Shown piece by piece: positions 16,673 through 56,231 of a DNA stretch of 64,000 nt. The first letter of the stretch is position 1; the number at the start of each line of letters is the position of its first letter. A program made the translations under genes and the position numbers. The stretch is from Gammaproteobacteria bacterium (lineage in GTDB: Bacteria; Pseudomonadota; Gammaproteobacteria; DSM-19610). A model generated the notes under the pieces. The model ran no database searches, was not told where the DNA came from, and saw nothing but the letters and a program-made list of their open reading frames with translations. The DNA is taken from assembly GCA_011321775.1 (NCBI GenBank), contig DROT01000127.1, positions 1,144 through 65,143 on the forward strand. Direction: 5' to 3'.

Positions 16673-17280
16673 TGAGAGGCCGGAGCGGTGCTGGGCTTGT
16701 CGGGTGCCTGCTGCTGGGTGCCCTGCTCGGTGGTTGCGCCACTGCCCCGACGACGGTGCCACCGGCTCCCGAAGCAACATGGCAGGCGCACCGCGCAGCC
16801 GTCGCCGCGCTGCAGCACTGGCAGGCGCGGGGGCGGATCGCGGTTCGCGCCGGCGAGGAAGGCTGGAATGCCGCCTTCGACTGGCAGCAGCGGGGCGATA
16901 GTTACCTTGTCCGCCTGCGCGGCCCCTTTGGCCAGGGGGGGGTGGAACTGCGCGGTGATCCGAGAGGTGTGTGGCTGCGGCGTAACGGGCATCCCCCCGT
17001 GTTCGCGACCGACCCCGAAACCCTGCTCGTGCAACAGACCGGCTGGCGTCTGCCGCTTTCCGGTCTGGGCGCCTGGCTGAAGGGGATGCCGGAAAGAGGG
17101 CAGGATCGCGAGCTGCAGTGGGACTCCGGGGGGCGCCTTCTGCGCCTGCAGCAGCGCGGCTGGCACATCGACTATCAAGGCTACGGTCGCATCGACGGCG
17201 TCGACCTGCCGCGCAAGCTGAAGTTGAAGCGGGACAGCCTCGAGGTACGGCTGGTCATCGACCGCTGGCAGGTTTCGTGA
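16672..17280 (+). CDS. lolB: Outer-membrane lipoprotein insertase LolB
   Basis: Lipobox LLGGC, WQARGRIAV, LRGPFGQG, GWRLPLSGLGAWLKG, LP.KL.L. Confidence 0.93.
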   Translation: MRGRSGAGLVGCLLLGALLGGCATAPTTVPPAPEATWQAHRAAVAALQHWQARGRIAVRAGEEGWNAAFDWQQRGDSYLVRLRGPFGQGGVELRGDPRGVWLRRNGHPPVFATDPETLLVQQTGWRLPLSGLGAWLKGMPERGQDRELQWDSGGRLLRLQQRGWHIDYQGYGRIDGVDLPRKLKLKRDSLEVRLVIDRWQVS

Positions 17281-18128
17281 ACAGCAGCACCGCCACCGCC
17301 TGGCCGGCACCGGCCAAGCTCAATCTCTTCCTGCAGGTGACCGGTCGCCGCGCGGACGGTTACCATGAACTGCAGACGGCGTTCCAGTTCCTCGACTACG
17401 GAGATCAGCTGTGGTTCGCGGAGGCACCGGCGGACAGCATCCATCTGGAAGGCGGTTTGCCGGGGCTGGCGCCGGAGCAGGATCTCATCGTGCGTGCGGC
17501 CAGACTGCTGGCGGCGGCGGCGGGGGTGCGCCGCGGCGCCCGTATCCGGGTGCGAAAGCGGATACCCGCCGGCGGCGGGCTCGGCGGCGGCAGCTCCGAT
17601 GCGGCCACCACGCTGGTGGCGTTGAATGCGTTGTGGAAGCTCGGTCTGGACAGGGCGGACCTGGCCCGCCTGGGATTGCAGCTGGGCGCGGACGTGCCGG
17701 TGTTCGTGCACGGGCGGGCGGCCTGGGCGGAAGGAATCGGCGAGCAGCTGATCCCGCTGGAGCAGCTGGAGGAACCCTGGTACCTCGTCATACATCCCGC
17801 GGTAAGCGTTTCAACCGCAGAGATTTTTTCCGCCCCCGAATTGACACGTAACGCCCCGCCCCTCAAAATACCCGCTTTTCTCTCGGGTGCGGGTGACAAC
17901 AGTCTCGAGGCCGTGGTCGTCGGCCGCTATCCGGAGGTGGGCAAGGCGCTGAACTGGCTGGGAAAACATCGACCGGCGCGGATGACGGGGAGCGGTGCCT
18001 GCGTGTTTGCCGCCTGCGAGGATCGGCGCCAGGCCGAAGTCCTGTTGCAACAGCTGCCTCCGCCCTGGAGCGGTTTCGTGGCGCGGGGCCGCAACCGCTC
18101 GCCGTTGCTGGAGCGGAAGGACATCTAG
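17277..18128 (+). CDS. ispE: 4-diphosphocytidyl-2-C-methyl-D-erythritol kinase
   Basis: PAPAKLNLFL, GYHELQT, KRIPAGGGLGGGSSDAA, LGADVP, MTGSGACVF. Confidence 0.97.
   Translation: MNSSTATAWPAPAKLNLFLQVTGRRADGYHELQTAFQFLDYGDQLWFAEAPADSIHLEGGLPGLAPEQDLIVRAARLLAAAAGVRRGARIRVRKRIPAGGGLGGGSSDAATTLVALNALWKLGLDRADLARLGLQLGADVPVFVHGRAAWAEGIGEQLIPLEQLEEPWYLVIHPAVSVSTAEIFSAPELTRNAPPLKIPAFLSGAGDNSLEAVVVGRYPEVGKALNWLGKHRPARMTGSGACVFAACEDRRQAEVLLQQLPPPWSGFVARGRNRSPLLERKDI
17841..17869 (+). promoter_or_regulatory. Candidate sigma70 promoter inside ispE for tRNA-Gln-prs-rplY
   Basis: TTGACA-N17-CAAAAT followed by a GC-rich discriminator-like sequence. Confidence 0.4.
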
Positions 18129-18133
18129 TTTTC

Positions 18134-18208
18134 TGGGGCGTCGCCAAGCGGTAAGGCACTGGGTTTTGATCTCAGCATACGCAGGTTCGAATCCTGCCGC
18201 CCCAGCCA
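18134..18208 (+). tRNA. tRNA-Gln (TTG)
   Basis: TGGGGCG/CGCCCCA acceptor stem, anticodon arm CTGGG-TTTTGAT-CTCAG, GGTTCGAATCC, encoded CCA. Confidence 0.97.
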
Positions 18209-18407
18209 GAGTGAAAAGGGTGCTGGAGACACCGGTGTAGAGAAATCCACCGGGCGTTGTTCCGGGGCGGCAGGGTTCGAACCCCAAGGTTCGACAAATC
18301 CGCGTAGCGGATTTGAACGGCGAAGCCGGCCCCGAAGGGGCAAGGGGCGCAGCCCCGCAGTAATCCTGCCGCCCCCGCCAGAGTGGAAAAGGGTTCTGGA
18401 GACGCCG
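18190..18407 (+). repeat. tRNA-linked duplication: 46-bp direct repeat (tRNA 3' end plus trailer), period 172, enclosing a hairpin cassette
   Basis: 18190-18235 versus 18362-18407 differ by 2 substitutions and 2 single-base indels. Confidence 0.9.
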
Positions 18408-18442
18408 GGGCGGCTGGTCTGATCATATACGGGTAACAGAGC

Positions 18443-19417
18443 ATGCAACGCATTCCTCCATCGGATGCAGACAGTCGCCTCATGGTGTTCTCGGGCAACG
18501 CCAACCCGCCGTTGGCGCAGTCCATCGCCAACTATCTGCGCATGAATCTCGGCAAGGCCGTGATCAGCGAATTCAGCGATGGCGAGATCATGGTGGAGAT
18601 CATGGAGAACGTCCGCGGCCGGGACGTCTTCGTGGTGCAGCCGACCTGTGCGCCGACCAACAACAACCTCATGGAGTTGCTGGTCATGGTGGATGCGCTG
18701 AGGCGCGCTTCGGCCGGGCGTATCACCACTGTCATACCCTATTTCGGGTATGCGCGTCAGGACCGGCGACCGCGTTCCGCACGCGTGCCGATCACCGCCA
18801 AGGTGGTAGCCAAGATGATCAGTGACGTCGGTGCCGATCGCGCGCTGACGGTCGATCTGCACTCGGAGCAGATCCAGGGTTTCTTCGATGTGCCGGTGGA
18901 CAACGTGTATGCCTCGCCGATCCTGCTGGGCGACGTGTGGCGCCAGAAGTATCCGGATCTGATGGTGGTGTCGCCCGATGTGGGTGGCGTGGTTCGGGCA
19001 CGGGCGCTGGCGAAACGACTCGATGATGCCGACCTGGCCATCATCGACAAACGCCGTCCCAAGGCCAACGTCGCCAAGGTGATGCACATCATCGGCGAGG
19101 TGGAAGGACGCAGTTGTGTGCTGGTGGACGACCTGGTCGACACGGCCGGTACCCTGTGCCAGGCAGCGGCCGCGCTCAAGGAACACGGTGCGCGACGGGT
19201 GGTGGCCTATTGCACCCACCCGGTGCTGTCGGGCAATGCCATCAACAACATCAGTGATTCCGAGCTGGATGAACTGGTGGTGACGGATACCATCCCCTTG
19301 CGACCGGACGCGCAGGCCTGTACCCGCATCCGGCAGCTGAGTATTGCGGAGATGCTTGCGGAGGCGATTCGTCGCATCAGCAACGAGGAATCCGTCAGTT
19401 CGATGTTCATGGACTAG
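18443..19417 (+). CDS. prs: Ribose-phosphate pyrophosphokinase
   Basis: [49 protein letters not shown]. Confidence 0.98.
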
Positions 19418-21986: not shown

Positions 21987-22063
21987 GGCAAGGTAGCTCA
22001 GTTGGTTAGAGCACAGCACTCATAATGCTGGGGTCGGCGGTTCGAATCCGCCCCTTGCTACCA
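21987..22063 (+). tRNA. tRNA-Met (CAT), elongator type
   Basis: GGCAAGGTAGCTCAGTTGGTTAGAGCA...CAGCA-CTCATAA-TGCTG...GGTTCGAATCC...CCTTGCTACCA. No fMet GGG/CCC anticodon stem. Confidence 0.95.
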
Positions 22064-22319
22064 GGCATGAAAAAGCCCGCACAAGCGGGCTTTTTCATGC
22101 CTGGTAGCAAGGGGTGTTACGGAGAATCGGCTCCGGTTCGAGCGCTTGCGCAGCAAGCACAGACGAAGCCGCGCAGCGGCGGAGCCCGGAGGGGCGCGAC
22201 GGCCGCGAGGCCGTCGCGATCAATCCGCCCCTCGCCGTTGCAGCGTAACAGCCCGCACAAGCGGGCTTTTTCATGCCTGGTAGCAAGGGGTGTTACGGAG
22301 AATCGGCTCCGGTTCGAGC
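22045..22319 (+). repeat. tRNA-linked duplication: perfect 30-bp hairpin that includes the tRNA 3' end, plus a 70-bp identical direct repeat (period 176)
   Basis: 22051-22080 pairs with 22085-22114. 22074-22143 is identical to 22250-22319. AATCCGCCCCT occurs at 22045 and 22222. Confidence 0.92.
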
Positions 22320-55819: not shown

Positions 55820-55889
55820 GGCCGGTCCGTGGACGCCGCCTCGTTGCGGCGTCCACCGTTTGACTGTCTTCCCCCTTCTCGTATACAGT

Positions 55890-56090
55890 CCTGCGCCGTT
55901 CACCCGGTGCTTCCTGCCCTCTGGAGGGCGGAAGTGAAACGGGAAGCCGGTGCGCTGCAACCCAGCAAGGCCGGCGCTGCCCCCGCAACGGTAGGTGAGA
56001 AGAGACGGAACGACAGGCCACTGCGCAGCTGCGCGGGAAGGTGTATCCGTCCGGCTTTCAGCCACTCACGAGCCCGGAGACCGGCCTGGT
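55890..56090 (+). promoter_or_regulatory. Cobalamin (AdoCbl) riboswitch
   Basis: GGTGC...AAACGGGAAGCCGGTG...GCCGGCGCTGCCCCCGCAACGGT...GCCACTG...GGGAAG...AGCCCGGAGACCGGCC (B12 box), directly upstream of a TonB-dependent receptor. Confidence 0.95.
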
Positions 56091-56231
56091 GACGACAACC
56101 TGTCGCGTGGGGCGGCTCCGGTGTCGGTCACATCTGTCAGCCGATATTGTCCGGCTCGGGTTTCCGGTCGAACTCCACGCATTTTTCGCCTCTATGCCGC
56201 ACGGGTGGTGTGGCCTGCAGTGGAGTATGCC

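Follow-up and report, generated by a model that had tools for sequence, protein, structure and literature searches.

What is the hairpin-rich, tRNA-like element that separates the tRNA-Gln(UUG) gene from prs in an uncultured gammaproteobacterium? The element lies in a 64,000-nt stretch of contig DROT01000127.1 (assembly GCA_011321775.1), referred to here as the window. A preliminary description had read it as a "top-half" tRNA mimic with a hairpin cassette in its T-loop, either the product of an insertion at the T-loop or a processed tRNA-like RNA in the prs leader. That description is accurate; the described family, RtT RNA or tRNA-linked repeats (TLRs), went unrecognized in it. The feature is real, and it is a member of this known repeat family, not a new class of tRNA mimic. 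Very probably, the element behind tRNA-Gln represents one-and-a-bit units of the TLR family modelled as RtT RNA, and is excised by tRNA 3' processing.

TLRs were first described in 1978, and ten loci of E. coli K-12 contain 22 of them. [quoted passage not shown] RtT members are found beside tRNA genes in Pasteurellaceae as well (PMC4986893). The TLRs of tRNA operons have no known function; a claim made in 1991, that one of them acts in the recovery from amino-acid starvation, was withdrawn in 1994 (PMC8144298), and a stringent-response role was dropped from consideration here for that reason.

Anatomy of the locus and assignment to the TLR family

The tRNA-Gln gene, the repeat unit and the two flanking genes, ispE and prs, are all on the + strand. 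The features of the locus, in window coordinates, are:

17118-18128, + strand: ispE, the upstream gene (TIGR00154, 268.8 bits)
17841-17869: sigma-70-like site inside ispE (promoter prediction by sequence)
18134-18208, + strand: tRNA-Gln(UUG) gene, host of the repeat (ARAGORN; Rfam tRNA, 61.4 bits)
18190-18208, + strand: direct repeat 1, the last 19 nt of tRNA-Gln from T-loop A58 to the CCA end (repeat search; 14-mer count against shuffles)
18209-18263, + strand: trailer of unit 1, 55 nt, with a small hairpin of its own (repeat search; fold)
18254-18380, + strand: Rfam RtT RNA (RF00391) alignment, model positions 1-130 of 130 (39.5 bits, E 2.8e-6)
18264-18276, + strand: 5' arm, complementary to the 3' strands of the tRNA T-stem and acceptor stem (inverted repeats, 95% and 93%)
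18277-18294, + strand: hairpin TCGAACC/GGTTCGA, an inverted T-loop remnant and a direct T-loop start (fold; alignment)
18295-18361, + strand: cassette, 67 nt, with four C(GNA)G hairpins (fold; alignment; covariation)
18295-18315, + strand: cassette hairpin 1, loop GTA, C-G closed (fold)
18318-18328, + strand: cassette hairpin 2, loop GAA, C-G closed (fold)
18329-18341, + strand: cassette hairpin 3, loop GAA, C-G closed (fold)
18344-18356, + strand: cassette hairpin 4, loop GCA, C-G closed (fold)
18362-18380, + strand: 3' arm and direct repeat 2, the last 19 nt of tRNA-Gln with one change (A72 to C) and a CCA end (repeats; 14-mer count)
18381-18417, + strand: shortened second unit, in which the opening 27-28 nt of the trailer recur and a new 5' arm starts (repeat search)
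18405-18417, + strand: second 5' arm start, CCGGGGCGGCTGG, in the shortened unit (direct and inverted repeats)
18443-19417, + strand: prs (ribose-phosphate diphosphokinase), the downstream gene (NF003428, 580.7 bits)

The 172-nt unit at 18209-18380 directly abuts the 3' end of tRNA-Gln(UUG) on the same strand, and is made up, in order, of the trailer, the tRNA 3' part in inverted form, a GAACC/GGTTC hairpin, the cassette and a direct copy of the tRNA tail. From A58 on, the tail copy at 18362-18380 matches 18190-18208 at 18 of 19 positions. The duplication of the tRNA 3' end with 27 nt of trailer, already noted in the preliminary description, was confirmed by repeat search: the first 27 nt of the trailer recur after unit 1, and the direct repeat 18190-18235/18362-18408 has a period of 172-173 and about 90% identity. 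The locus thus described amounts to about 1.2 units, one full and one shortened. A sequence check likewise upheld the inverted pair reported earlier, in which GGGGCGGCAGG (18264-18274) and CCTGCCGCCCC (18365-18375) are perfectly reverse-complementary. The GCCA that was said to follow this 3' arm is indeed present, at 18377-18380, with one extra C (18376) standing between. Three features go beyond what had been described: a 20-nt inverted copy (18264-18283 against 18184-18203, 95% complementary and including the T-loop), the restarted 5' arm at 18405-18417 and a fold on the opposite strand.

The 14-mer AATCCTGCCGCCCC occurs at three sites in the window at ≤1 mismatch (18190 and 18362 on the + strand, 18264 on the - strand), compared to a mean of 0.04 in shuffled sequences. 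A chance origin of the tRNA-tail repeats was rejected from this count (three against 0.04 expected) and from fold z-scores of -5.7 to -6.2. A search of the + strand between tRNA-Gln and prs gave no terminator-like site, and the 153 nt between the direct repeats do not wholly contain any + strand reading frame of ≥25 aa.

With permissive settings, an Rfam scan over 18050-18500 returned a full-length match to RtT (RF00391) at 39.5 bits, against a gathering cut-off of 45; apart from this the scan contained only tRNA and noise, with no ribozyme, riboswitch or leader family in that interval. The shortfall from 45 to 39.5 bits is one of degree, since tRNA-Tyr arms are prominent in the top-scoring E. 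coli copies and the window copy has different ones. In its organization, the window copy has several of the properties by which TLRs are recognized: a tRNA lies just upstream on the same strand, the last 18-19 nt repeat the 3' end of that tRNA (18/19), an outer helix formed by the 5' arm and the tail copy encloses the conserved hairpins, and the units are in tandem with a fractional last one (one full unit plus the shortened unit at 18381-18417).

The closest comparison is to the TLRs of E. coli itself (the 178-bp tyrT-distal repeats, also known as RtT RNA, rttR and RF00391), which share with the window element the position directly behind a same-strand tRNA, a unit of 172-178 nt, and a tandem arrangement with a partial last unit. 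At E. coli tyrT there are 3.14 units of the repeat, and an rtT RNA of 171 nt is released from the primary transcript. Both units end in the last 19 nt of the tRNA and have a 5' arm that pairs with this tail, the GAUGAGAACC-type, GGUUCGA, CCCGNAGGG and AGUAAUCC motifs and the C(GNA)G hairpins are kept, and the covariance model aligns along its full length. The window copy differs from the E. coli TLRs in that it scores under the curated cut-off, in its host tRNA, a tRNA-Gln(UUG) in an ispE-tRNA-prs unit instead of a tRNA operon, in its first cassette hairpin, which is long with an A/U-rich base, in the replacement of the GUUGC/GCAAC hairpin of E. coli, and in the host organism, an uncultured gammaproteobacterium.

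The 5S rRNA-linked TLRs of E. coli, RrA, RrB and RrF, belong to the same repeat family. Their 3' ends copy the 3' end of the upstream stable RNA, they are transcribed by read-through and then processed, and RNase E cleavage is proposed to be directed by the 3' copy (PMC8144298). They differ from the window copy in following 5S rRNA, in having GGA motifs in their loops and in binding CsrA and Hfq; the loops of the window copy are GUA, GAA, GAA and GCA, none of them containing GGA. tRNA-like minihelix mimics, such as the tRNA-like domain of tmRNA, resemble the element in their acceptor-plus-T-stem-like helix and 3' NCCA, and the window helix gave a partial match to tmRNA_permuted (17.5 bits, E 0.15) that was far under the cut-off (47 bits). 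Unlike tmRNA, the window copy has no intact T-loop, tag reading frame or pseudoknots.

Fold, compensatory changes and constraint

The predicted fold is very stable, with an energy of -75.5 kcal/mol for a 131-nt stretch (z = -6.2 against shuffles) and of -92.5 kcal/mol for the whole 172-nt unit (z = -5.7). The outer helix has 13 predicted base pairs, 11 of which form a perfect inverted repeat, and is followed by NCCA. The four small hairpins listed in the preliminary description are all present in this fold, and the energy-based and covariation-supported folds agree on the acceptor-plus-T-stem-like helix, its NCCA end and the location of the cassette at the place of the T-loop. The opposite strand of the element folds nearly equally well (z = -5.5).

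We then considered an alignment (A1) of 23 copies of the RtT-like element. The RNAalifold consensus contained 28 pairs, 17 of them with compensatory double changes. When the fold derived from the window was imposed, 84.2% of cells could pair, compared to 73.5% in shuffles and 33-46% with slid partners, and 21 pairs had changed on both sides, a number reached by 0/500 shuffles; in reading these values, the aligned sequences are related and the tested structure was derived from one of them. The signal sits in the outer helix, where 8/10 pairs had double-sided changes, and in the first and last cassette hairpins (8/9 and 4/5 pairs, respectively). Compensatory changes in the stems, the absence of which had been proposed as grounds for refuting the preliminary description, are thus present among the copies, and the outer helix co-varies with the identity of the local tRNA. 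The GAACC/GGTTC core of the hairpin at 18277-18294 (columns 35-39/60-64) is invariant or almost so across the 23 copies. The cassette loops, at 18304-18351 in the window, are nearly always of the form C(GNA)G, and such triloops, with the middle base free, occur 55 times in the 23 copies compared to 0.44 in shuffles. CCA was lost in 3/23 aligned copies, which shows that the tRNA-like 3' end is not strictly kept.

G-U pairs and A-C mismatches, counted over 43 pairs, were present at a ratio of 43:36 (p = 0.5). Given this lack of a G-U excess and the nearly equal antisense fold, the conserved structure could act in DNA, not RNA. At the tRNA-Gln-prs locus, the cassette is 84-89% identical in five of six congener comparisons, while the prs coding sequence is 83-87% and the trailer 54-71% identical. 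On these identities, the cassette at this locus is either under constraint or homogenized; its conservation could stem partly from copying between repeats instead of from selection.

Other copies in the genome, the genus and public databases

The genome that contains the window (3.08 Mb in 267 contigs) yielded three RtT matches in an Rfam search besides the window copy. The first follows tRNA-Tyr in a tyr-gly-thr-tufB operon and scores 65.6 bits, above the cut-off. Another is found inside copies of tRNA-Ser(CGA), arranged in an array with a period of 211 (C209 40170-40515, equivalent to L003 1440-1781, and C128 1-130). The copies in this array are near-complete tRNAs with the cassette placed exactly in the T-loop, i.e., GTGGGTTCGA, cassette, AATCCCAC; the assembly breaks at the array, and an intact tRNA-Ser(CGA) lies downstream of it on the next contig. 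ARAGORN miscalls the cassette-interrupted copies as 89-nt tRNAs. The array could be an insertion intermediate, and could equally have arisen from an ordinary unit that underwent deletion between its two GGTTCGA motifs. The remaining match is at a contig end (C130 7792-7940, L004), where no tRNA was called in the short flanking stretch; pairing between its 5' arm and its tail, AATCCTCCCGAGCGTGCCA, is poor, and small reverse-strand frames adjoin the copy.

A further TLR-like unit was identified in the window itself, at 22064-22319, after tRNA-Met(CAU) (21987-22063). This unit begins with a terminator hairpin, whose outer arms pair the tRNA 3' end with TGGTAGCAAGGGG, followed by GGTTCGAGC, GC-rich C(GNA)G hairpins and ATCAATCCGCCCCT, and there is a partial second unit at 22250-22319. 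It aligns with the Ser-type cassettes, and Rfam gave it no RtT score even at E ≤ 10. An nhmmer search of the same genome with a cassette profile recovered only the four Rfam matches and missed the tRNA-Met unit. The genome also contains, at about 16150-16994 of C148 on the - strand, a 770-bp islet between direct repeats of the tRNA-Glu(UUC) 3' end. Two small reverse-strand frames, recognized by eye, could constitute a toxin-antitoxin pair, and the islet, in contrast to the TLRs, has the look of a standard att-type insertion.

Among the other congeners, 10/24 had RtT matches, located after tRNA-Tyr, Gln(CUG), Gln(UUG) and Arg(UCU), and three other genera of the class had matches after tRNA-Ser(GGA/GCU). 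Every one of these copies starts with the complement of the upstream tRNA tail and ends in that tail. The sister species G009 and G001 have the element at the identical tRNA-Gln(UUG)-to-prs site, with scores of 47.3 and 46.5 bits, both above the cut-off. The nearest named relatives of the window in the public set, Thiogranum MAGs with 74-76% nucleotide identity over a syntenic 2-3.5 kb, also bear the element at this site. In 12 of the 25 congeners with the locus assembled, the spacer between tRNA-Gln and prs is short (28-64 nt) and the module is absent; these include the fairly close relatives G004 and G006, and the spacer of G014 retains a fragment of the tRNA tail. In about 11/25, the spacer contains a partial unit, a single unit or two units, and the last two genomes have an intermediate form. 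Two to three units are present at the site in G007 and a Thiogranum MAG, there being three copies in one such MAG, so that the copy number at the site spans 0 to 3. This variety of spacer forms and copy numbers fits gain and loss through recombination between direct repeats; by itself, it is no proof of transposition.

Beyond the genus, E. coli K-12 had 17 RtT matches by Rfam search, all of which end in the local tRNA tail. Four are located around tyrT-tyrV, including the annotated rttR (1287066-1287236), and the rest follow tRNA-Pro(CGG), Lys(UUU), Ser(GGA) and Arg(ACG). A scan of public sequences with an exact cassette-motif pattern, using one genome per species, matched at least 119 stretches. 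Named among the matches listed are Thiogranum, Halofilum, Rhodanobacter, Steroidobacteraceae, Lysobacterales, Shewanella, Rheinheimera and Methylophagaceae, along with Zetaproteobacteria such as Mariprofundus. A same-strand tRNA was present ≤900 nt upstream of 84 of the 133 cassette copies among the matches listed, representing 18 tRNA species, and 70 of these 84 copies end in the tail of that tRNA. The uninterrupted identity to the tRNA was exactly 19 nt in 45/54 copies among the matches listed, and longer in none. When 150 further families of the class were sampled evenly, with a single genome per family, RF00391 matched (E ≤ 1e-4) in 23/150 and scored above the cut-off in 7/150. Mean cassette identity was 0.66 for the same taxon and a different tRNA, 0.64 for a different taxon and the same tRNA, and 0.65 when both differed, with the extraction of the core being imperfect in a few copies.

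Taken together, the copies show a TLR unit that is built from the 3' part of the host tRNA, inverted once and direct once, clamping a GC-rich C(GNA)G cassette. The module stands behind many tRNAs, in the same genome, the genus, other Gammaproteobacteria, Zetaproteobacteria and E. coli, and its arms appear in each case to be those of the local tRNA. Homologous cassettes at other tRNAs, whose absence would have told against the preliminary description, are therefore present in all of these settings. Contigs from two metatranscriptome studies contained cassette-like sequence from relatives over 18265-18392, with 8-18 differences; such contigs cannot show transcription, ends or level. Of the sampled words, a quarter were present in the best DNA sequencing run, and about a twentieth in the RNA runs.

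Proposed processing of the unit and competing explanations

If the element is a TLR, a promoter within or upstream of ispE would drive transcription of the repeat unit together with tRNA-Gln and prs, and the RNA of the unit would fold into a 13-bp helix resembling stacked acceptor and T stems with an NCCA end. The enzymes that process tRNA 3' ends (RNase E-type cleavage followed by exonucleolytic trimming) would then cut a second time after the tail copy, because the unit repeats the tRNA 3' end and, in this case, also 27 nt of the trailer. Judging from the anatomy of the locus and the reports on E. coli TLRs, an RNA of about 172 nt (18209-18380) would be released, and the prs mRNA would keep the same 5' leader as in relatives lacking the unit. 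Unequal recombination between the direct repeats would alter the copy number.

The insertion reading of the preliminary description is a rival to this account, and has some support in the A58 boundary and the tRNA-Ser(CGA) copies. It can be formulated as a cassette that is, or was, a small non-autonomous mobile element that lodges at A58 in the T-loop, whether of a tRNA gene or of a spare copy, with the near-universal GGTTCGA...AATCC as the target or the recombination homology and the tRNA-specific arms as target DNA; we consider this possible rather than probable. A cassette of one type beside 18 tRNA species and a sharp boundary with tRNA sequence at A58 (45/54 copies), both among the matches listed, are what such an element might leave behind, as is a cassette exactly within the T-loop of otherwise complete tRNA-Ser(CGA) copies. 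However, the tRNA-Ser case can be derived from an ordinary unit by deletion between its two GGTTCGA motifs, and most copies lie only between the inverted and direct 3' parts, not in a whole tRNA, an arrangement that a simple insertion does not yield. The tRNA-Gln-prs site is occupied or empty depending on the congener, with the fairly close G004 and G006 empty and copy numbers from 0 to 3, but recombination between direct repeats explains the empty sites equally well, and the copies at the same locus look vertically inherited across the genus. Cassette similarity groups neither by genome nor by tRNA type. There is no transposase or integrase alongside, the neighbours being ispE and prs, and neither constant terminal repeats nor a target duplication were seen.

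The direct repeats of the tRNA tail also bring to mind genomic islets at tRNA 3' ends, in which an insert is flanked by attL and attR. A T-loop-specific integrase leaves direct repeats of the tRNA 3' end that start inside the T-loop, and the 770-bp islet between tRNA-Glu(UUC) tail repeats shows that the genome has at least one insertion of this general form. It is nevertheless very unlikely that the element is such an integration scar, with att repeats surrounding a degenerate mini-island. There is no integrase, the neighbours being ispE and prs, and the 153 nt between the repeats are without a gene. In contrast to an islet, the interior is a conserved, folded and covarying cassette, common to E. 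coli, with an inverted arm fitted to the local tRNA in every case, a fit not expected of an imported attP; furthermore, tandem arrays with trailer repeats indicate unequal recombination. The other reading in the preliminary description, if taken to mean a cis-regulatory leader specific to prs (an attenuator or sensor), fell away and is extremely unlikely. The element does separate the tRNA from the prs start codon, and no terminator-like site intervenes, but the module also follows tRNAs in operons without prs, 12/25 congeners have a spacer of 28-64 nt and no module, and, the trailer being duplicated, prs is immediately preceded by the same sequence whether the unit is present or absent. The interval 18050-18500 matched no riboswitch or leader family.

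A function in trans for the released RNA, as a top-half tRNA mimic (an uncharged minihelix with a CCA end) acting on the processing enzymes, the CCA-adding enzyme, RelA or tRNA-directed toxins, seems doubtful. The 13-bp outer helix (11 bp of perfect inverted repeat) followed by NCCA has the appropriate shape, compensatory changes keep this helix whenever the tRNA differs, and the cassette is conserved as a coding gene is; moreover, E. coli processes its 5S-linked TLRs, which bind Hfq and CsrA (PMC8144298). Against this, the arm match follows from the way in which the unit is built, with selection not needed, the CCA is missing in 3/23 copies, many congeners lack a copy at the tRNA-Gln-prs locus, and there is no strand bias favouring RNA. 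The sole functional claim for a TLR in a tRNA operon has been withdrawn (PMC8144298).

A more speculative proposal, which we consider improbable, is that the TLR/RtT cassettes are an ancient self-propagating parasite of tRNA genes, tolerated through clean excision and acting as single-stranded DNA. The cassette of about 67 nt may enter at T-loop A58 of spare tRNA 3' copies by means of the universal GGTTCGA/AATCC homology, and would be tolerated because the unit rebuilds the 3' processing site of the tRNA and is cut out cleanly. The C(GNA)G loops resemble the very stable DNA mini-hairpins of the d(GCGAAGC) type; this likeness and the lack of an RNA-strand bias are the reasons for placing the activity of the structure in single-stranded DNA under this proposal.

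Read as a TLR, the window copy by itself matters little, since it adds one copy to a repeat family on record since 1978. The comparative data describe the family: arms taken from the local tRNA, the boundary at A58, GNA triloops with a free middle base, and compensatory stem changes that span from E. coli through relatives of the sulfur-oxidizing Thiogranum to Zetaproteobacteria, with an RtT match in about one in six of the sampled gammaproteobacterial families (23/150). For annotation, the Rfam cut-off misses many true members, such as the window copy and the tRNA-Met copy, tRNA finders can miscall cassette-bearing tRNA copies, as in the tRNA-Ser(CGA) array, and TLR repeats break assemblies at tRNA loci. 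Elsewhere in the window, a Cobalamin riboswitch (RF00174, 98.9 bits) was identified at 55888-56103 on the + strand.
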